14,122 nucleotides of DNA, taken from assembly GCA_937899305.1 (NCBI GenBank), contig CALDJV010000935.1, forward strand, positions 1 to 14,122, given 5' to 3'. Made by a program: the position numbers and the translations under genes. The number at the start of each line of letters is the position of its first letter. The stretch's first letter is position 1. This DNA is from an uncultured Cytophagaceae bacterium (GTDB lineage: Bacteria > Bacteroidota > Bacteroidia > Cytophagales > Microscillaceae). Of the stretch, positions 165 through 9,750 are shown piece after piece. The notes beneath the pieces were generated by a model. The model saw only the letters and a list, made by a program, of their open reading frames with translations, did no database searches and had not been told where the DNA came from.

Positions 165-2714
165 TTAATCTTCCTCCTCCTCTTCTACGTCGTCGGCTTC
201 GGCTCCGTTGAGGCTAGACTCTAGCACATTGGCCAGTTTGGTGCCTTTGAGCATATTGGTAAATACCTGGGCCACACTTTTGCCTCCTAAAATGGCCAAT
301 GGTGACATTGATTTTGCCATTTTTTCGGCCAACGATTTATCGGCAAAGGCTTGCAAAGCAGCTATCAAATTAGGTGATACTGCCTCTGCTTTGTTCACTA
401 CCGCTTGTACTTCAGCCTGGAGTTGTTCCAGCTCTTGATTCAACTCTTTTTGAGCAATTTCTAACAGCAACTCTTCTTCTTTCTGCTTGCGGGCCAGTTC
501 TGCATCATTGATTTGAGTCAATGATTCTTGCTCAGCCAAATTGGCTTCCAGTTTACGTTGCTTAGACTGAATCTCCATGTCTAGTTTTACCAAAATAAGC
601 TCCAACTCTTTTTTGGCTTCCTTTTTCTCCAGATCTAACTGCCGTTGGGTAGTTTCGGATTTGGTAGTAGCAATCTGCTGACTGATTTCTTCGCTTTGTT
701 GGGTAAATTCTAATTTGCGTTTTTCGGCATCTATACGCAAAGTTTGTTTGACCACCTCTTGTTGGGCCGAAATCAACAGGTTTTCAATGCTTACATCGCT
801 CAGGCGAATGTCCAGCACTTCTATGTCATAAATACGCATGTTGTTTTCTTCAAACATACGCCCAGGACGTTTGTTGCTTTCTCCGGCTTCGCCCAAAATA
901 CTATTACGCAAAATGTCAATGCCATTGGCATAAAAATCCATAATGGTGTGTTTTTTCACCTTGTTACGGATAAACGAACGCATGTGGTCGGTCAAAAATT
1001 TGACATAATTCTCAACATTGAACCACTTGTCGGACGCTTCTTCAAAATTGACCCGATAAGAAATGGTAATGCTCACTTGGGTAAAATCAGAAGACTCGGC
1101 TTTGACAATGTCTGAAATTTTGTTGTGTAGTACTCGTAAATATACCGTAGTAATGGTATTATCGGAAGTTTTGGGCGTTCCAGTGGAGAGGGTAATGGGT
1201 TCCAGGCTTTCGTCGTATTCCAGCAAATAAGTTTGGGGCCCGGCTACTACTTTGCGTTGTCCGGTTTTGCTCACTACCAAAATGGCGTACCCGGTCCATA
1301 AGTTGATGGTCACCGCTCCTTCGTATTTGGTATCGAGGGTAATGGTGCGTGGAGGGGTAAAACTTTGCTCTCGGGTAAACTCATCTCCGGCCATTTCTTT
1401 GGAGACTTTCTCTTTCTTCTTGCGACGAGGTGCGGGTACCGGCATTTCGTCGGCCAGTTCTTCCATTTCTATGGCTGCCGCAGGTTCGGCCGATACCTCC
1501 AGATAACCTTCATTTGATTTACGGCGGTCCAGCTCTTGTTTGAGTTGACGATTGTATTCTAAGGCCTCCGAGTTACCTGGAAACCAAAGTTTTACTTGCT
1601 TGGGGTCTAATACCCGCTTGACAAATACTGCTTCTCGAGGATCGGGTAAAAACATGGCCGGACCTTGTTTGAGCGATACTTTTCCAGTTTTTCGGTTGAG
1701 GTAGTAGCGCCCTTCTCCTGCTGGAATGGCAATGGCATAATGTCTTTCTTTTTGGCCATATTTGATAATGGCATGTTCAGGACGAGGATAGTAAATCATT
1801 TGCTCGTTTCCGGTCACAAACAATTCTTCCCCTTCCTGGAAAGTAGTGCCATTTTCTTCATAAGGAGCTATGACCTTGATATACAAGCCACTCATTTCGT
1901 TGAGTTCAATTGCCCGGAACTTACGCGATCCATTGCGATATACAAACTCCTCAGTAGGTTTTGGGAAGACCACCGCAGGGCCTTGAATGTAACGTTTGTT
2001 GCCGTCTTCGTCTAGTAAAATACAATACTCGAGCCGCTCCAGAGTAACCGCTTCTCGCACGTAGTTTCCACTCACCCCTCGTACCACTTCTATGCCGGTG
2101 GGTGGGATATAAAACGATACTGCATCTCCCTTGATGATCAGCATTTTACCCATCGTCAAATCCGGCATTTCCTCCAGATTTATCACTTCTACCTCTGAAC
2201 CTTCTCCCTCCTTTTCTTCTCCGTCTTTGGCCTCTCCTGAACTTTTGGTTTTAATAACTGCCTTGTTCCAATTTTGTCGGGCTTCCTCTTCGTCGTATAC
2301 TCTTACCGCCAAATATTGATTTGAGCGTAAATGATGGCCTCTCAGCACTTTTACCATTTGTCCAGGCCATAGAGCAAAGTTAATAGGTCCCGGAATATTT
2401 ACTTTGCGCCCCACATTCAAAGCTCCCAGATTGCTTACGGTCCCATTTTTAGGCTGAGTACCATCCTGTGGAGGGTTCTTCATGACAATGTACCAACCCT
2501 CGGGTGCAGTGGTGAAAGTTTGCAAGGAAGTGTCAAGTGTACAACGTTCAAACTTTTTAGTTTGTGAATCAAATATGACGGGTTTATCAGTATTGGCCAA
2601 ACTGGTTTTATAAGGCCCTACATATACGTTGATGTTTCCTTTGGTTTGGTCAGAAATAAAAGCAAATTCATTGGGAGTAAGCACCAGATCGCGCTCTCGG
2701 TTGGAGTCTGACAT
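165..2714 (-). CDS. Major vault protein (MVP) homologue, full length (849 aa)
   Basis: The N-terminus (VLTPNEFAFISDQTKGNINVYVGPYKT) resembles the eukaryotic MVP N-terminus ([26 protein letters not shown]). About 500 aa follow as repeated beta-rich MVP-repeat-like modules. Next comes a shoulder-like segment (IYDIEVLDIRLSDVSIENLLISAQQEVVKQTLRIDAEKRK). After it is a long E/K/Q-rich coiled coil, equivalent to the cap-helix. The C-terminal block (PNLIAALQAFADKSLAEKMAKSMSPLAILGG) resembles the human MVP C-terminus and is followed by an acidic tail, DDVEEEEED. Start is ATG and stop is TAA. Confidence 0.85.
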   Translation of the reverse strand: MSDSNRERDLVLTPNEFAFISDQTKGNINVYVGPYKTSLANTDKPVIFDSQTKKFERCTLDTSLQTFTTAPEGWYIVMKNPPQDGTQPKNGTVSNLGALNVGRKVNIPGPINFALWPGQMVKVLRGHHLRSNQYLAVRVYDEEEARQNWNKAVIKTKSSGEAKDGEEKEGEGSEVEVINLEEMPDLTMGKMLIIKGDAVSFYIPPTGIEVVRGVSGNYVREAVTLERLEYCILLDEDGNKRYIQGPAVVFPKPTEEFVYRNGSRKFRAIELNEMSGLYIKVIAPYEENGTTFQEGEELFVTGNEQMIYYPRPEHAIIKYGQKERHYAIAIPAGEGRYYLNRKTGKVSLKQGPAMFLPDPREAVFVKRVLDPKQVKLWFPGNSEALEYNRQLKQELDRRKSNEGYLEVSAEPAAAIEMEELADEMPVPAPRRKKKEKVSKEMAGDEFTREQSFTPPRTITLDTKYEGAVTINLWTGYAILVVSKTGQRKVVAGPQTYLLEYDESLEPITLSTGTPKTSDNTITTVYLRVLHNKISDIVKAESSDFTQVSITISYRVNFEEASDKWFNVENYVKFLTDHMRSFIRNKVKKHTIMDFYANGIDILRNSILGEAGESNKRPGRMFEENNMRIYDIEVLDIRLSDVSIENLLISAQQEVVKQTLRIDAEKRKLEFTQQSEEISQQIATTKSETTQRQLDLEKKEAKKELELILVKLDMEIQSKQRKLEANLAEQESLTQINDAELARKQKEEELLLEIAQKELNQELEQLQAEVQAVVNKAEAVSPNLIAALQAFADKSLAEKMAKSMSPLAILGGKSVAQVFTNMLKGTKLANVLESSLNGAEADDVEEEEED

Positions 2715-2980: not shown

Positions 2981-4654
2981 CTAGGCAAGTCGTCCATCCG
3001 CTCTCATTTTATTGTAATGTTCGGGAGTGAGCTCAGCCACTGGAATGCGAAACACATTCATGGCTAACCCATCTGATATATGCTCCTGCTCATTGTCTAT
3101 TTCTTTTTTCCCTTTTTGCACATACTGGAGCTTGTTCAATCCTGGAAAAGTTTCTACCAATTGACCATTAGGGTCTTTTACCCACCAATGTTCATAGCCA
3201 ATTTTATCTGGTCGCTCATGCATACAAATTTTCCAAGTGTTTTTGGTTCCAAGTGGCAACACACGCAAGCCGTAGCTCTCAATTGTATTGATCATCACTT
3301 GTTGAGTAGCCTGCTTTACGGCCTTTTTTCTTGCTTTCCCAATTTTTTTGGCACTCCCCTGCCTACGGCTCACTTCTTTCAGATGAGTTACTGTAGCATC
3401 TAAACGTTCTCGAGCATTGTCAAACCTATTTTTTTCTGCTTCATTTAACTCATTTTGTACAAACATCGTGTATGCATCATCCCGTCCTAAACCAATCCCA
3501 GTTCCTCCTACATTGGATGGTACTTGGCTACTTACATAACCAAACATCGCGGTAGATTTTGGTACTCTCACATCTTCTGAAACTGCTCCAAGTAAGGCCC
3601 AATTCCAACAAGCAGGTCCATCAACAGACTTTTTCGTTTGAGAGGCCTCAAACTCCGCTTGAGCTTCTTCATCTAAGATAGTAGGCCCTAACTGGGAGCT
3701 TTCATTCTTTTTAAAATTCTTAAGTTTTACTGGTTTCTCATTCTCTTCTGCCATAATACCGCCTGCAAGCACATACAATTCACCTGGCTGAAATTCCCTT
3801 TCTACATCTTGAACCGTACCGTCGTAACTTAGTATCTTGTACACTTTTCTGGGCAAAGGTATCTTGGTATTGGTGCCCCAGATTTTTTTTAAAAATGATT
3901 TATCATTTACTGTCACCACTGTACCTTCTGGCAAAGTTCCTACCCTCTGTCCACTTTTGTTATAAACAGCCCTGTCACTCACATCACCTTTTTTGGAGGT
4001 ATGGTTTTTTATCTTGGTATTGATAATCCTCTGAACAGGAGAGGCCAAACTAAGTGTACTGGTGTTTGTTTCATTAGAAGAAACCTTTTCATCTGCTTTT
4101 CTTTGCAAAGGCTGCGCCGCCATTTGGTCGACTACTTGCTCTCGGGTGGTGTCTACCGATTGGCCGTTGACTACCTGGTCGCCTTTTGGAGTTCCATTTT
4201 TTGCATTGTCTATGGCGTGAGCCACTTCATGTTTGATGTTCGACTCAGTATCCTTGCCTGGAGCAAAGTCAATCTTGCTCCCCTGAATGGTGGCTTCGGC
4301 ATTGACTGTGTCTGGAAAAGGTGAATTATGATTGGCCTTCAAGCTCGACGTATCTACCCCATGTTGCTGCCCCATGGTGGTGGCTATTTCCTTGAATTTG
4401 GCCGAGCCTTGAGGTTGTTTGGTTTGTCCAGCCGAATTACGCTGCACTGGCTTTTGTTTGGCCTGAACGGGACGTTGCTTGGCTTGAATTGGTTTTTGTT
4501 TGGCCTGAACAGGGCGTTGCTTCGCTTGAATCGGCTTCTGCTTGGCTTGAATGGTACTTTTGCTTTGGGCTTTAGCTGATTTATTTGGTTCAACTGACTG
4601 TTTGCTTTGGGCTTGGGTGTTGTCGTTATGATTAGATGATGCTTGTTGATGCAT
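2981..4654 (-). CDS. Multidomain protein: N-terminal Q/K/P heptad repeats + DUF4157 (zincin-like HExxH) domain + C-terminal putative papain-fold Cys/His domain; polymorphic-toxin/effector-like
   Basis: Residues about 92-150 (MGQQHGVDTSSLKANHNS...NAEATIQGSKIDFAPGKDTESNIKHEVAHAIDN) fit the DUF4157 pattern. That pattern is M..FG.DFS.VR.H...A.A.T.G..I.F..G.......HE.AHxxQ, with the HExxH motif. Residues 36-71 are five copies of QAKQ[KR]P[IV]. In the C-terminal 330 aa, Cys349 sits in GPACWNWALLG and His489 in IGYEHWWVKD. Their 140-aa spacing is reminiscent of the papain-like Cys...His-aromatic arrangement. No signal peptide is evident. Confidence 0.7.
   Translation of the reverse strand: MHQQASSNHNDNTQAQSKQSVEPNKSAKAQSKSTIQAKQKPIQAKQRPVQAKQKPIQAKQRPVQAKQKPVQRNSAGQTKQPQGSAKFKEIATTMGQQHGVDTSSLKANHNSPFPDTVNAEATIQGSKIDFAPGKDTESNIKHEVAHAIDNAKNGTPKGDQVVNGQSVDTTREQVVDQMAAQPLQRKADEKVSSNETNTSTLSLASPVQRIINTKIKNHTSKKGDVSDRAVYNKSGQRVGTLPEGTVVTVNDKSFLKKIWGTNTKIPLPRKVYKILSYDGTVQDVEREFQPGELYVLAGGIMAEENEKPVKLKNFKKNESSQLGPTILDEEAQAEFEASQTKKSVDGPACWNWALLGAVSEDVRVPKSTAMFGYVSSQVPSNVGGTGIGLGRDDAYTMFVQNELNEAEKNRFDNARERLDATVTHLKEVSRRQGSAKKIGKARKKAVKQATQQVMINTIESYGLRVLPLGTKNTWKICMHERPDKIGYEHWWVKDPNGQLVETFPGLNKLQYVQKGKKEIDNEQEHISDGLAMNVFRIPVAELTPEHYNKMRADGRLA
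4442..4549. repeat. In-frame imperfect 21-bp tandem repeat x5 (encodes QAKQ[KR]P[IV]) inside the 557-aa CDS
   Basis: The nucleotide period is visible directly: ttgcttggcttgaattggtttttgtttggcctgaac is repeated with small substitutions. The protein-level heptad repeat confirms it. Confidence 0.8.
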
Positions 4655-5255
4655 ATTAGTTTTTAAAATTAGATAATACCTTGAAAATCTACCAACCTGA
4701 ATAAAGCAGAATGGGCCACTTTAGCTAAAGCCACCTATGTTTGGTGTCTTCAGCTTACCTAGGTATTCTTCGAAGCTGTATCGTGATTATTTTCACAATA
4801 CAGTTTTAAAATCTGCTTTTATTTGGTTATAAAGTCGTTTTTAAAAACTTTTTTCTTTCAGGCATCCGCCTGATGACTGCAATCAATAACCCTTACAAAG
4901 CAGGCTAACATTTGGTTGCTTTGATAATTAAATTTATTAACAGCCTCTTAACACAGTTGTATTATTCAAATAATCATTTTCACCTTATCTCAAGCATTGA
5001 AGTAGGTTTATTAATTCGTAATAAGGTCGAAGGCAACTTGATATTGACTAAAAAGAAAGCCTTGTGCTCAAGTCAAAAAAACCTTAACTCAAACAATTTT
5101 TCATAAAATCTTACCATAATTCGTTATATTACCATTGAAGTATAGATTGATCATAAAAATTAGCATCTTTGAAAGCATACGATGCTTGGAAGCGGTGATT
5201 TTATTTGAAAACCAACTTTCAAACACTCGTACCAAACATTCAAATAATTATTTCT
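4655..5255. promoter_or_regulatory. 600-bp AT-rich divergent intergenic region; presumed promoters for the 557-aa gene (minus strand) and the subtilase (plus strand)
   Basis: The stretch has no convincing ORF and sits between divergently transcribed genes. It contains small palindromes (gtttttaaaaac, caggcatccgcctg). I could not assign precise -33/-7 elements by eye. Confidence 0.3.
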
Positions 5256-6917
5256 ATGAAATTGAAAAGTATTTTTATAATAGGTTTATTGTTCATTCAA
5301 GTAGGGATGGCCAACGCCAAAACTCCTACCCCTTACAAATTCCCCTACCCCGTTTTCCATTTTTCTAATATTTATTGGGTAGTAGCCAGTGATAGCACCG
5401 ACAAACCTCCCAAAAACTGGTTCAATCTCGATGCCAAGCAGGATAATATTCGTGGAGTGAGTACCGAAAAAACGTATCAGACCTTGTTGAAAGGCAAAAA
5501 ATCTACTACAGTAGTAGTAGCCGTGATCGACTCGGGCATAGATACCAAACACCCTGATTTGAAAAAGCAGATTTGGGTAAACCCCAAAGAAAAACCGGGC
5601 AACGGCAAAGACGATGACAAAAATGGGTATGTGGATGATATAAATGGTTGGGATTTTATCGGCGGAAAAGACGGCAAAGATGTGGATATAGATACCTATG
5701 AGCTTACCCGGGAATTGCTTCGTCTGGAGAAAAAATTTGCCGATGCCGACCCTGAAAAGATACGCAAGAAAGACAAGAAGGAATATGAGAGTTATCTTAA
5801 AATAAAGAAAACACACGCCAGTAAATACGGTGAGGCGCGTCAGACCTACGCAGTGATCACTCAAATCAAAGCAGCTTATCAAGTGGTTCAAAAAGCACTT
5901 GGCAAAAAAGATGTCAAAAAAGAAGACCTTGATAACCTCAACAGTGAGGACGCGGAGGTAGTGCAAGCAGCTCAGATTCTAAAACGAGCCATTGGATTTG
6001 GCCTTCCCTTGGGTCAGATAGAGGAAGCCCACAAACATTACGAAACCATGTTTAAATATTGGTTGAACAAGGATTTTAACCCCCGCAATATTGTAGGAGA
6101 TAACTACAAGAAGTTGAATGAAAAAGGGTATGGTAACAATGAGGTACAGGGCCCTGACGCAGATCACGGAACTCACGTAGCAGGGATTATCGGAGCCGAC
6201 AGAACCAATGATGTGGGTATCAAAGGAGTAGCTGACAATGTCAAAATTATGGTATTGAGAGCAGTGCCCAATGGAGACGAAAGAGACAAGGACATTGCCA
6301 ACGCCATTCGTTATGCAGTAGACAATGGGGCACGCATCATCAACATGAGTTTTGGTAAGTCTTATTCTCCTAACAAAGAATTTGTTGACAAGGCGGTAAA
6401 GTACGCCCAAAAGAAAGGAGTATTGTTGATACACGCTGCAGGTAACGACGGCGCTAACTTGGACGAAGCAGCTAATTTTCCTAATAAAAAATTCAAAAAC
6501 TCTAAAAAATCGGCCAAAAACTGGATTGAAGTAGGTGCTTCTTCCTGGGGAGACGAGAAGAATTTTGTGGGTAGTTTTTCAAACTATGGTAAAACTGCAG
6601 TAGATGTATTTGCCCCTGGGGTAGCCATCAACTCTACCATTCCTGACAATAAATACACTGAGCATGACGGAACCAGTATGGCCGCTCCGGTAGTATCTGG
6701 AGTAGCTGCTTTACTGATGTCTTACTTCCCTGAATTGAGCGCTGAAGATGTAAAGGAAATCATTCTGAAGTCATCAATTAAGTACACTGATAAGGAAATC
6801 AACAAACCGGGTAGAGGTAAAAACACCATTAAATTTGGTGAATTGTCAGCAACTGGGGGTATTGTCAATGCATACGAAGCCGTAAAAATGGCTCAAAACT
6901 GGAAGGATAATAAGTAG
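5256..6917 (+). CDS. Secreted subtilisin-like serine peptidase (S8 family)
   Basis: The catalytic triad motifs are present: Asp in VVAVIDSGID, His in DADHGTHVAG, Ser in GTSMAAPVVSG, plus the oxyanion Asn in HAAGNDG. A signal peptide MKLKSIFIIGLLFIQVGMANA begins at an internal ATG (about 5256). The ORF-track start at 5205 is probably upstream of the true start. A charged insert of about 180 aa lies between the catalytic Asp and His. Confidence 0.9.
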   Translation: MKLKSIFIIGLLFIQVGMANAKTPTPYKFPYPVFHFSNIYWVVASDSTDKPPKNWFNLDAKQDNIRGVSTEKTYQTLLKGKKSTTVVVAVIDSGIDTKHPDLKKQIWVNPKEKPGNGKDDDKNGYVDDINGWDFIGGKDGKDVDIDTYELTRELLRLEKKFADADPEKIRKKDKKEYESYLKIKKTHASKYGEARQTYAVITQIKAAYQVVQKALGKKDVKKEDLDNLNSEDAEVVQAAQILKRAIGFGLPLGQIEEAHKHYETMFKYWLNKDFNPRNIVGDNYKKLNEKGYGNNEVQGPDADHGTHVAGIIGADRTNDVGIKGVADNVKIMVLRAVPNGDERDKDIANAIRYAVDNGARIINMSFGKSYSPNKEFVDKAVKYAQKKGVLLIHAAGNDGANLDEAANFPNKKFKNSKKSAKNWIEVGASSWGDEKNFVGSFSNYGKTAVDVFAPGVAINSTIPDNKYTEHDGTSMAAPVVSGVAALLMSYFPELSAEDVKEIILKSSIKYTDKEINKPGRGKNTIKFGELSATGGIVNAYEAVKMAQNWKDNK

Positions 6918-6949
6918 TTTTTTTAGTTTTAAAGTCAATAGTTTTCTTT

Positions 6950-7021
6950 AGTTGGTAGTCCGTAGTTTTATTTAGTTGGTAGTCCGTAGTTTTATTTAGT
7001 TGGTAGTCCGTAGTTTTATTT
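6950..7021. repeat. Perfect 3 x 24-bp tandem repeat (AGTTGGTAGTCCGTAGTTTTATTT)
   Basis: Three identical head-to-tail copies start about 33 nt after the subtilase stop. Degenerate AGTCC(A)-containing copies follow at about 7022-7050 (agtccacggtcgacagtccatagtccacag). Confidence 0.9.
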
Positions 7022-7168
7022 AGTCCACGGTCGACAGTCCATAGTCCACAGTAGCGCGATGCGGAACAATTAGCTTTTGGTCCTTGGTTGACTAATTGAA
7101 TGAAAAATGATACGCCGCTTTGCGCAACCCGAAGTCCTGAGCGAAGCCGAAGGAACTAGCAATGCAGC

Positions 7169-7291
7169 AATGAGCCGAAGGCGGAACAATGTAACAATAG
7201 CAATAAGTCATCGCTTTGCGAAACAATTAAACAATGAGCCGAAGGCGGAGCAATGTAACAATAGCAATAAATCATCGCTTCGCGAAACAAT
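7169..7291. repeat. Two near-identical ~59-bp direct repeats (period 64 bp) with degenerate partial copies upstream
   Basis: The unit aatgagccgaaggcgg[a/g]acaatgtaacaatagcaataa[g/a]tcatcgctt[t/c]gcgaaacaat occurs twice. Related fragments (gcgatgcggaacaat, gagcgaagccgaagg, ccgctttgcgcaaccc) lie at about 7055-7168. Each unit carries an imperfect internal inverted repeat, gccgaaggcg / cgcttcgcg. Confidence 0.85.
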
Positions 7292-7367
7292 AGTCCAGAG
7301 CTGATGAAATCGAAAAGTTATTTTTTCAGCTTTAATAAACGTAAAAAATTGACTATATCAATAATTG

Positions 7368-7400
7368 GTCTCGCAGGTATTTTACTTGCGAGGCTTTTTT
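7368..7400 (+). terminator. Intrinsic-terminator-like hairpin + U-tract, 17 nt upstream of the start codon of the next gene
   Basis: The sequence is GGTCTCGCAGG-tatttta-CTTGCGAGGC, a roughly 10-bp stem, followed by TTTTTTATAT. This pattern exists only on the plus strand. It could end the subtilase/repeat transcript or act as a leader attenuator for the three-gene operon. Confidence 0.45.
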
Positions 7401-7416
7401 ATATCTGAGCATTCCC

Positions 7417-8040
7417 ATGAAAATATATTTTACCCTTGATGAACTTCCTGAACAATATCAAAAACAATTCAAGGCCGGATTTGACCTCAATCATCTCCAG
7501 CAATTTTACCCTGCCACCAATCCTTATGGCACTACCCTATTTACCCTGATTGCCTTTGGCTTGCCCGCCATTTTGGTCATCGTTTTAGTAATCATGGCGC
7601 TTTTTCAGCCTATGGCCAACCCTCCTCAAACCACCCAAGATTGGCTCATTTTTGTTAGTATTGCCGCTTTTCTATTACTCATTCTGGGTGGCCTCGCTTG
7701 GTGGATTGTTCGGGTATTCAAAAACTTTCGAGTTGTTTCTCAAATTAAAAAGATACGCAAGGAAAAAGGGCTTAGTCACTATGGATTGCTCTTAGATGAA
7801 CACTTGGTGTACCGGCCCATTGCTACCCAAAAACCAATACTGATGTTACCTAAAGACTTGGTCCGTCGGGTAAAGCAAGTGTCTCAACGGGTAGAAGGCA
7901 GCAACCGACAATACTTACAACTGATTTACTTTGATGAAGACCAACAGCAGGAGTTTTATGTCGAGATGAGCCGCTATGAACTAGATAAGCAGTACACTCA
8001 AGGCAGGACCCTGAGTACCATTATAGAAAAATGGAAATAA
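7417..8040 (+). CDS. Hypothetical 2-TM inner-membrane protein (paralogue of the gene at 8683-9363)
   Basis: It has a 207-aa ORF with an ATG start. The N-terminal cytoplasmic motif is QKQFKAGF...LQQFYP. Two hydrophobic helices follow (FTLIAFGLPAILVIVLVIMALF and LIFVSIAAFLLLILGGLAWWIV). The C-terminal domain of about 100 aa has a conserved YRP motif. It is clearly paralogous to the third gene of the cluster. Confidence 0.7.
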   Translation: MKIYFTLDELPEQYQKQFKAGFDLNHLQQFYPATNPYGTTLFTLIAFGLPAILVIVLVIMALFQPMANPPQTTQDWLIFVSIAAFLLLILGGLAWWIVRVFKNFRVVSQIKKIRKEKGLSHYGLLLDEHLVYRPIATQKPILMLPKDLVRRVKQVSQRVEGSNRQYLQLIYFDEDQQQEFYVEMSRYELDKQYTQGRTLSTIIEKWK

Positions 8041-8044
8041 AAAT

Positions 8045-8617
8045 ATGAAGTACACATCGAAAAATAAGTATCAAATAGGGTGGTTGATTGTATGGGGTAT
8101 TTGCCAATGGCTTACCGGGTGTTACCCCATCTACCTCGAAAGGTCTAAAGCCAATGGGGAAATGCGAACGGTGAAAACCTGGCATTTTACCAGAAACCTA
8201 GTCAAGCACAAATCACTGACCTCAGATGGAAAACTTGTCAAACGATTTTATATCTCGCCTAGTGCCCGATGCTTGTCTCGCCAAGACATCAAACTCATCA
8301 AAAAACAATTGAGGACCAAAAAAGTCAGGTTTACAAACTATACCATCTACTCACAAGATTGCAAAGCTGTATTTTCACTCTCGGTAGACGATTACATTGC
8401 TCCTTTTTACCGCATTTCAATTCCCATGATCAAGACAAATGGGAAAATATTTATCAATCATTGCCTTCAGGATAACCCTCCCCTTGCGGAATTGCTTGTC
8501 ATTGAAAAACTACTCCGTAAGGAGTTTTCAGCAGATGTAGTAAAAACCATTCTGGCTCGTTATAAAAGAGGTACGCAACGGTTTGTCAGGCGTCATTATC
8601 ATCGAACGAGGCATTGA
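8045..8617 (+). CDS. Hypothetical protein, putative lipoprotein (lipobox L-T-G-C at Cys26), very basic C-terminal tail
   Basis: It has a 190-aa ORF that starts 4 nt after the previous stop. The N-terminus MKYTSKNKYQIGWLIVWGICQWLTGC has a positively charged n-region, a hydrophobic h-region and an LTGC lipobox. The C-terminus is RYKRGTQRFVRRHYHRTRH. No recognisable domain. Confidence 0.55.
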   Translation: MKYTSKNKYQIGWLIVWGICQWLTGCYPIYLERSKANGEMRTVKTWHFTRNLVKHKSLTSDGKLVKRFYISPSARCLSRQDIKLIKKQLRTKKVRFTNYTIYSQDCKAVFSLSVDDYIAPFYRISIPMIKTNGKIFINHCLQDNPPLAELLVIEKLLRKEFSADVVKTILARYKRGTQRFVRRHYHRTRH

Positions 8618-8682
8618 AGCAGGTCATCAACAAGGCGCTAAAACCAACTCAACCAGGTTCTTTAATCAAACGATTTAGAAAA

Positions 8683-9363
8683 ATGCAGGTATATCATTCG
8701 TGGAAAGACTTTCCAATTTCCTGTCAAAAACAATTGAAAGAAGGTTTTAATACTCAAAATCTCAAGGATTTTTATCCAACATCTACCAACTTCTGGATGT
8801 ATTTGCTTGGGACGGTTTTATTAGGCATTCCAGGATTCATTGCCAGTATTTGGGGAGTCATTGCTATAGTAGATTTGCTATTTTTTCAGGATAATTTTTC
8901 TGATTCTTCTAGTATAAGCGACACCATTGTATTGGTGGTGGCCGTTTTGATTGTCCTCATTCTATTGATCGCTTTTTTTATTTGGGGAATCAACCTATTC
9001 ACCAATTTTATGAGAGCCATCCAAATAAAGCAAGGCCACAAAAAACAACGGGTATATTTTGGTTTGTGGTTAGCCACCGATGCACTCATTTACCGTCCAC
9101 GATTGGCAAATAAAAAACCGATCTATATTTCTAAAAAACAAGTAACTAAAGCCGAATGGCATTCCGAAATACTCCCTTCAGGTTCGGGTGGAGGCAAACA
9201 TCAAGTATACTTTAGTTTGATATATTATCACGATTCAGTTCAAAATGTCGAATACCATATTAGGATTGACCAAGAAGCACTGGATGCCCAATACTTGCAA
9301 CAAAGGGAGGTGTATCAAATTGTAAATGATTGGCTGACCAAAAAGGGGAAAAGGAGGCATTGA
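8683..9363 (+). CDS. Hypothetical 2-TM inner-membrane protein (paralogue of 7417-8040)
   Basis: The ORF track opens at a TTG at 8614 that overlaps the preceding stop. The first ATG, at 8683, gives an N-terminus MQVYHSWKDFPISCQKQLKEGFNTQNLKDFYP. That aligns residue for residue with MKIYFTLDELPEQYQKQFKAGFDLNHLQQFYP of the first gene. Two TM helices follow, then a conserved block GL.L....L[VI]YRP....KPI. The true start is uncertain between 8614 and 8683. Confidence 0.65.
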   Translation: MQVYHSWKDFPISCQKQLKEGFNTQNLKDFYPTSTNFWMYLLGTVLLGIPGFIASIWGVIAIVDLLFFQDNFSDSSSISDTIVLVVAVLIVLILLIAFFIWGINLFTNFMRAIQIKQGHKKQRVYFGLWLATDALIYRPRLANKKPIYISKKQVTKAEWHSEILPSGSGGGKHQVYFSLIYYHDSVQNVEYHIRIDQEALDAQYLQQREVYQIVNDWLTKKGKRRH

Positions 9364-9750
9364 CTTTCGAGACCTGATTACAGTTATTTTTTACCGATCA
9401 TGTTTAAGAATTAGCATCAATCATACACTATTACCAAGGCATATTTGTGCTTGTCTTGCCTCGCTATGAAACCATCTGTCTGTCTCATACGTTACACAAA
9501 AGAGAAAAAATCCTAACAAAGGAATAAGAATCAATCAACTTATCAATTATCAGAGTTAAGATGCTCTGAAATCCACTTCTTCACCTTACTTAGGTGTCTT
9601 CACTAACCGGTGATTATACCATTAAATTCACTTTGGAAGGTTGTAGTTTTTAGGTGCTCACTCTTCAGGTAGCAGTTGCGTAATTAGGGGCAATTTTGCT
9701 CACCCTGCTACCCTACAAACTTTTCATGAAGCAAAACCACAGCACATTTT

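Follow-up and report, generated by a model that had tools for sequence, protein, structure and literature searches.

Organization of the Locus

The stretch of DNA analyzed here (hereafter the window) comprises 14,122 nt of contig CALDJV010000935.1 (GCA_937899305.1), read on the forward strand. The source organism is placed in the Microscillaceae (Cytophagales), and its nearest genomes are those of the marine bacterium AO1-C and of the metagenome-assembled genome UBA11690. Three genes of the window, called A, B, and C below, had been described in an earlier note as a tightly packed operon in which two paralogous membrane proteins flank a putative lipoprotein. The present analysis yields a new sequence family, formed by A and C, whose architecture is of a known class, and an orphan open reading frame (ORF), B; no new machine emerges.

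The three ORFs of the note are borne out, and all lie on the + strand. Gene A (7417-8040) is a 207-aa ORF for an inner-membrane protein and is the founding member of the family. Gene B (8045-8617) is a 190-aa orphan ORF for a putative lipoprotein. Gene C (8683-9363) encodes 226 aa from an ATG, or 249 aa from a TTG (8614-9363), and specifies a paralogue with the architecture of A. The flanking genes rnc, fabF, acpP, and pyk are housekeeping genes. Codon scores are 0.17 for A, 0.10 for C, and -0.07 for B, the neighboring genes scoring 0.28-0.48.

The start codon of C is most likely ATG 8683, rather than TTG 8614. This revision is made because alignments place ATG 8683 opposite M1 of both A and the AO1-C orthologue of C, because nucleotide conservation between C and this orthologue sets in exactly at ATG 8683, because a 226-aa version of C was already called in one data source, and because the context upstream of this ATG is A-rich, as is that of the B start. 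With this start, the real B-C spacing is probably 65 nt. Thus, of the tight packing, the gap of exactly 4 nt between A and B stands, whereas the B/C overlap, present only with the TTG 8614 start, is probably an artefact of longest-ORF calling.

A and C Belong to a Rare Family of Paralogous Membrane Proteins

A and C are true, diverged paralogues, as had been supposed: BLASTP aligns them with 28% identity over 218 columns (E = 6e-21). Each contains two hydrophobic segments, in agreement with the two transmembrane (TM) helices previously assigned to it, followed by a K/R-rich stretch after the second helix (TM2). Of the two signatures proposed for the pair, QKQ[FL]K.GF....L..FYP is present exactly in both proteins, whereas GL.L....L[VI]YRP....KPI needs a one-residue indel in each. 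In scans with Pfam, NCBIfam, PADLOC, and PHROG, no model reaches threshold for A or C, nor for B, in line with the note, in which no family was recognized for any of the three. Yip1, DUF975, FxsA, PycTM, and holin were considered as families for A, B, or C and rejected, these matches being sub-threshold and driven by TM composition.

The family is rare. Among 5.8 billion proteins, a word-seeded search returned five A-type sequences and, for C, the query itself only. An exhaustive HMMER profile search among 1.84 billion cluster representatives gave 24 proteins at E<=1e-3. Nearly all family members are 207-244 aa long; a few are shorter (down to about 155 aa) and probably truncated. They share a common layout with the same order of motifs, consisting of an N-terminal motif, two hydrophobic helices, a basic linker, and a C-terminal domain. 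The N-terminal motif, ELPxxYQxxFxxG...FYP, is kept across 26 members, with G21 nearly invariant. A conserved Pro is carried by the first hydrophobic helix, and the C-terminal domain shows the motifs HYGLLLD, LVYR, and (I/L)PK..I and a terminal W.

Orthologues of A that are 61-71% identical occur in syntenic position in the related loci L001-L005 and L007, and one that is about 96% identical is found in locus L019. Compared with L019, the ratio of nonsynonymous to synonymous changes (pN/pS) is 0.19 for A (binomial p = 2e-4) and 0.03 for the gene of the adjacent S8 peptidase; A is under purifying selection. An orthologue of C, 55% identical, was found only in AO1-C (L001, 12072-12746). Taken together, A and C define a small and rare family of inner-membrane proteins, so far unnamed, from Bacteroidota of the Cytophagales/Microscillaceae type.

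Predicted Topology and Fold

Kyte-Doolittle analysis of A locates the hydrophobic segments at residues 37-70 and 72-102, with 8 K/R within the 20 residues that follow TM2. From hydropathy and the positive-inside rule, an N-in/C-in topology is predicted for both A and C. In A, residues 1-36 (7417-7524, + strand) would then form a cytoplasmic N-terminal region bearing the ELPxxYQxxFxxG...FYP motif, residues about 37-102 (7525-7722, + strand) a TM helical hairpin with a short K/R-free loop (QPMANPPQTTQD), and residues 113-207 (7753-8037, + strand) a cytoplasmic PH-like domain, modelled as a sandwich of six beta-strands followed by a C-terminal helix. The corresponding PH-like domain of C would be encoded at about 9034-9360 (+ strand).

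The full-length AlphaFold model of A (predicted local distance difference test, pLDDT, of 60) contains helices at residues 36-62 and 73-117 and a beta-rich C-terminal domain. Modelled in isolation from a 25-sequence alignment, this domain reaches a pLDDT of 83.2 and a predicted template modelling score of 0.69, with the six beta-strands and the C-terminal helix. In structure comparisons, the matches of the domain model are almost all PH, PTB, GLUE, or FERM-F3 folds, at 4-18% identity, and the model shows the partly open beta-sandwich capped by a C-terminal helix that defines the PH-like superfold (Pfam clan CL0266). Weak sequence matches point the same way (Vps36 GLUE, E = 0.019; Pob3, E = 0.03-0.08; faint PH_FAN, PH_TFIIH, and bPH_8). 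The resemblance to the eukaryotic PTB, PH, GLUE, and FERM-F3 domains is at the level of the fold only, and nothing points to binding of phosphoinositides or NPxY peptides by A or C. By these models and profiles, A and C have the fold and architecture of bacterial PH-domain membrane proteins; the assignment is to a class, by fold and architecture, and does not extend to any defined bPH family.

Comparison With Bacterial PH-Domain Families

The closest architectural parallel is bPH_2 (PF03703), formerly DUF304, a family that includes Bacillus YdbS and YdbT. Like A and C, its members are small proteins of the inner membrane, with a TM hairpin immediately ahead of a cytoplasmic PH-like domain, and they often occur as pairs of paralogues. 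In A and C, too, TM helices stand directly before the PH-like domain, the cytoplasmic side of which is deduced from the positive-inside rule. However, the family differs from bPH_2 in having the additional conserved N-terminal motif, in lacking a WRY-type domain start, and, as far as sampled, in its restriction to Bacteroidota-type contexts. At the sequence level, the bPH_2 hidden Markov model (HMM) finds neither A nor C at E<=10, none of the 26 full-length members at E<=0.01, and none of the 25 isolated domains at E<=10. A YdbS-like sequence, used as a positive control, scored 66.6 bits against Pfam.

A 10-sequence bPH_2 alignment was built from this YdbS-like sequence and nine plasmid homologues. 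Aligned with it by hhalign, the family alignment has 32 columns in register over beta2-beta4 (pairwise E = 0.0045, with a probability of only 7.7%), so that LVYR...(I/L)PK..I is paired with the bPH_2 motif iPm..vq.V. A single-sequence comparison with bPH_2 gave no match. On Firmicutes plasmids (L022-L028), bPH_2 genes occur as adjacent or overlapping YdbS/YdbT-like pairs of PH-domain paralogues, a small one of about 160 aa and a large one of about 500 aa, and in L026 the pair adjoins a gene for an ABC-transporter ATPase. This pairing parallels the paralogy of A and C.

A TM anchor joined to a bacterial PH-like domain is also seen in the SunI-like bPH_8 proteins (PF23491), SunI itself serving in bacteriocin immunity, and in the YcxB-like proteins (PF14317). 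A single family member gives a faint, insignificant bPH_8 match (E = 0.24), and HMM comparison, the only one made with the YcxB-like family, found no match for A, C, the 26 members, or the 25 isolated domains. bPH_2 and YcxB-like folds had been proposed beforehand as comparisons for the tail domain; the tail does turn out PH-like at the fold level, but neither HMM matches it.

The soluble PHb1/PHb2 proteins (PF08000, bPH_1) share with A and C the PH-like beta-sandwich and C-terminal helix. No sequence similarity between them and A or C was detected. In the solved structures, PHb domains are assembled in C5 and C12 rings (Xu et al., 2010, PMC2817789). The same study predicts that membrane-bound bPH families carry an intracellular PH domain through which transporter- or pore-like assemblies oligomerize as rings. 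As to function, the best experimental precedent comes from DdE and DdF, the bPH proteins of the enterocin DD14 cluster, which are both needed for export of a leaderless bacteriocin (PMC8657885). Like A and C, they are paired membrane-associated bacterial PH-domain proteins. However, they belong to a Firmicutes bacteriocin operon with an ABC transporter, and nothing comparable flanks A or C.

Protein B

The N-terminus of B reads MKYTSKNKYQ-IGWLIVWGICQW-LTGC, with Cys26. Residues 1-26 (8045-8122, + strand) would form a candidate signal for signal peptidase II, with a K-rich n-region, the h-region IGWLIVWGICQW, and the lipobox L-T-G-C26. In a pattern test, B conforms to the lipobox pattern [LVI][ASTVI][GAS]C, with the Cys at 15-35, K/R in the n-region, and an uncharged h-region; this fits a PROSITE PS51257-type rule. 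The h-region stays under the 19-residue Kyte-Doolittle threshold of 1.6. The strongly basic C-terminus reported along with the lipobox is equally present, the last 30 residues holding 9 K/R and 3 H. The isoelectric point is 10.2 for the whole protein and 10.3 for its mature part, a basicity that is unusual for an exported protein.

Among the 5.8 billion proteins, the only relative of B is a variant from a second strain, with 95% protein identity and in the same 90% cluster. No match was obtained by tblastn in five syntenic relatives or by phmmer against PDB sequences. Decay from a metallophosphoesterase, VWA, or 70-aa gene, of the kinds that occupy the same slot in relatives, was considered as an origin of B and rejected, since tblastn finds no remnants of these genes in the window. 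An open frame as long as B arises in 1 of 20,000 composition-matched shuffles of the region. Over the full length of B, its frame has the highest codon score of all six, yet B scores lowest among the genes of the window. In L019, the frame is intact despite 20 substitutions (pN/pS 0.42; p = 0.052, borderline); the lipobox is unchanged there and the h-region carries the changes W13G and L14V. B is probably a real gene, a lineage-specific orphan unrelated to A and C, and, judging from its N-terminus, possibly a lipoprotein.

Gene Turnover Between A and rnc

In the gene order shared by the related loci, an MVP-like gene and a gene for a repeat protein of 470-560 aa come first. The S8 peptidase gene follows, then the terminator-like hairpin, A, and a variable slot, and beyond the slot rnc, fabF, acpP, and pyk. 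Wherever a related locus was recovered, A comes immediately after the S8 peptidase gene. The variable slot, which ends at rnc, holds B and C in the window, and B only in L019 and L020, which have 96-98% nucleotide identity to the window. In AO1-C, it contains an opposite-strand metallophosphoesterase gene and C; in L002-L004, a 70-aa ORF and a phosphoesterase gene; in UBA11690, a 70-aa ORF, two further ORFs, and a phosphoesterase gene; and in L005, genes for a VWA protein and a split phosphoesterase.

The triad is therefore not co-conserved: outside the window, B was recovered only from L019/L020, and C only from AO1-C, without A as its immediate neighbor. In AO1-C, C stands next to rnc, and the opposite-strand phosphoesterase gene separates it from A. 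Distant family members are solitary, in unrelated contexts, and neighbor GldN, a CYTH protein and a guanylate cyclase, an SNF2 helicase, or a CHU_C protein; a lipoprotein partner adjoining other family members was looked for and none was adjacent. From metagenome samples, a genome may have three or more types of paralogue, which adjoin S8, CYTH, and GldN, respectively.

A comparison with L019 indicates how C may be lost. A 986-bp segment (8660-9645), which spans C, the 23 nt before it, and about 280 nt after it, is missing from L019, as seen by blastn and at the junctions. The indel is clean (joint at L019 6822-6823), with the 5-nt microhomology AGGTT at both junctions, which suggests that a microhomology-mediated deletion removed C in L019. 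C also lies beside rnc in AO1-C, and the most economical interpretation is an ancestral C that was lost repeatedly.

In the window, 387 nt (9364-9750) separate C from the convergent rnc. They contain no convincing ORF and no Rfam match; the distal roughly 100 nt are common to L019, and the remainder is part of the indel. The C orthologue of AO1-C ends about 10 nt from rnc.

Transcription Signals

A terminator-like hairpin (7367-7395, + strand) with a 13-pair stem and a 3-nt loop is followed by a T-run, the whole spanning 7367-7405 with the tail TTTTTTAT, and ends 17 nt upstream of the ATG of A. All five aligned loci have it, and one of its base pairs has changed in the window from A-T to G-C in a compensatory manner; it is presumably the terminator of the S8 peptidase gene. 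Since this position leaves almost no room for a promoter, a read-through or a leaderless A transcript is implied: transcription may run through the hairpin into A, or start at a promoter that overlaps it and is possibly leaderless. The Bacteroidota -7 motif TAnnTTTG has no + strand match in 6838-8869, and a sigma-70 scan upstream of A, B, and C gives a background level only, which leaves all three genes without an assignable promoter. Between A and the end of C, the + strand shows no terminator-like site. The single match of the Rfam scan, to Spot_42 over the hairpin, was rejected as due to chance (26 bits versus a threshold of 80).

Interpretation

The earlier note suggested that A, B, and C would fit one small envelope-associated system (immunity, stress sensing, or abortive defence). 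Spelled out, this would be a system of three components, encoded by a co-transcribed operon and with the lipoprotein B working with the membrane paralogues. The common strand, the 4-nt A-B gap kept in two strains, the lack of a terminator-like site between A and the end of C, and the resemblance of the variable slot to accessory regions would fit this proposal. However, co-conservation in relatives had been set as its test, and this test failed: A alone is conserved, and the idea of a three-gene system is thereby refuted. Besides the window, B occurs only in a near-identical strain, which is without C; in AO1-C, an opposite-strand gene lies between A and C, so that C has to be transcribed from a promoter of its own; distant members stand alone, without a lipoprotein neighbor; and the B/C overlap is probably not real. 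Nor was a context of toxin or phage-defence genes, to be checked according to the note, found. PADLOC finds no defence components in the context of the window and no match for B or C, the flanks are housekeeping genes, and the S8 gene gives only a generic subtilase similarity. An IetAS-like defence role of this subtilase was considered and rejected, the similarity being generic to S8 peptidases and no IetA partner being present. We therefore regard a three-component system as very improbable. According to a second proposal, A and C would be small pore-forming or holin-like 2-TM effectors, for instance of the abortive-infection or toxin type, with the C-terminal domain as a sensor. Their small size, the 2-TM hairpin, and the weak matches to PycTM (E = 0.017; 13 bits with A, in the TM region only) and Phage_holin_3_6 (E = 0.036) are consistent with it. 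These matches, however, span only the hydrophobic hairpin and lie far under the model thresholds (13-15 bits), and A occupies a fixed position between housekeeping genes, with relatives 61-71% identical, under purifying selection. No cyclase, sensor, or phage gene is adjacent, and PHROGs give no match, viral contigs not having been searched for related loci. This effector role is thus improbable as well.

A different doubt bears on B only, which could be an ORF without function, either spurious or in decay, within the hypervariable intergenic slot, with a lipobox arising by chance. Its orphan status, its low codon score, a pN/pS not significantly under neutral, and a basicity unexpected in an exported protein all speak for this; the rarity of such a long frame in shuffles, the coding signal strongest in this frame throughout, the survival of frame and lipobox through the substitutions of the second strain, the A-rich start context, and the conserved spacing from A speak against it. 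On balance, a nonfunctional B seems unlikely, although it is to be taken seriously. The reading that we favor, with a confidence slightly above even, is that A and C are diverged PH-like membrane paralogues with, by analogy, a scaffold or accessory role, that B is an unrelated orphan, and that the three genes became neighbors by turnover and do not form a system. The short cytoplasmic N-terminal motif, the TM hairpin, and the cytoplasmic PH-like sandwich with its C-terminal helix would together make up a YdbS/YdbT-like bPH architecture. By analogy with the PHb rings and with bPH proteins of the DdE/DdF type, the PH-like domains of A and C may assemble as homo- or hetero-oligomeric rings at the cytoplasmic side of the inner membrane. 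A and C could then act as a non-enzymatic membrane scaffold or as a transport or immunity accessory, for instance in peptide or protein export or tolerance, or in envelope homeostasis. B would have landed in the hypervariable slot between A and rnc, and the adjacency of A, B, and C would reflect local gene turnover, not co-evolution.

Several points weigh against this favored reading. The full-length model of A is poor, with a pLDDT of 42-55 in the N-terminal region, and the structures of the hairpin and of the motif are tentative. No bacteriocin, ABC-transporter, or toxin gene lies near A or C, and both oligomerization and role are proposed by analogy alone. The 4-nt A-B spacing of the two strains would be compatible with a lineage-specific pairing of A and B. 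Finally, A always stands beside the S8 peptidase gene in Microscillaceae, and a functional link is conceivable. In a bolder variant, A and C would be a new bPH branch restricted to Cytophagales, in which the cytoplasmic N-terminal motif docks on the PH-like domain and gates the ring, and B, as a newly born basic lipoprotein, would have been recruited as a periplasmic partner in a nascent two-component envelope module (A-B) tied functionally to the secreted S8 peptidase encoded upstream. We consider this elaboration to have very little likelihood.

Bacterial PH-domain membrane proteins are widespread and, to our knowledge, almost none has a known mechanism. The A/C family would be a Bacteroidota branch of them missed by current HMM libraries, and its conserved N-terminal motif offers a possible experimental handle. 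The locus also exemplifies rapid gene turnover beside core genes, with the probable loss of a paralogue through a 5-nt microhomology deletion and the appearance of an orphan ORF. It gives no evidence for a new system and opens no long-standing question.

Other Features of the Window

In the intergenic region between the S8 peptidase gene and A, positions 6914-7033 and 7160-7287 contain repeats: a 24-nt tandem repeat in about four copies (GTAGTTTTATTTAGTTGGTAGTCC) and a 64-nt direct repeat in two copies with 91-95% identity. Positions 6940-7211 are missing from L019, and in other relatives the S8 stop codon lies only about 30 nt from the hairpin. This stretch looks like a strain-specific repetitive insertion.

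Further upstream, 165-2714 (- strand) encodes an 849-aa homologue of the eukaryotic major vault protein (MVP_shoulder, 1.8e-30; Vault_3; SPFH/Band_7), which has an acidic C-terminal tail and relatives that are 91-93% identical. The 557-aa protein encoded at 2981-4654 (- strand) has the unit QAKQ[KR]P[IV] in tandem at its N-terminus, matching a DNA repeat at 4448-4551, and a motif of the metalloprotease kind, HEVAHA. Pfam gives no match for it, its L019/L020 orthologues are faintly flagged as PF13699 (eCIS_core/DUF4157), and only its N-terminal third is conserved in relatives; it may be effector-like. The longest-ORF start of the S8 peptidase gene, TTG 5205 (5205-5255), is probably wrong, the orthologues beginning at the equivalent of ATG 5256 (MKLKSIF...) with a type-I signal peptide that ends ANA|K.

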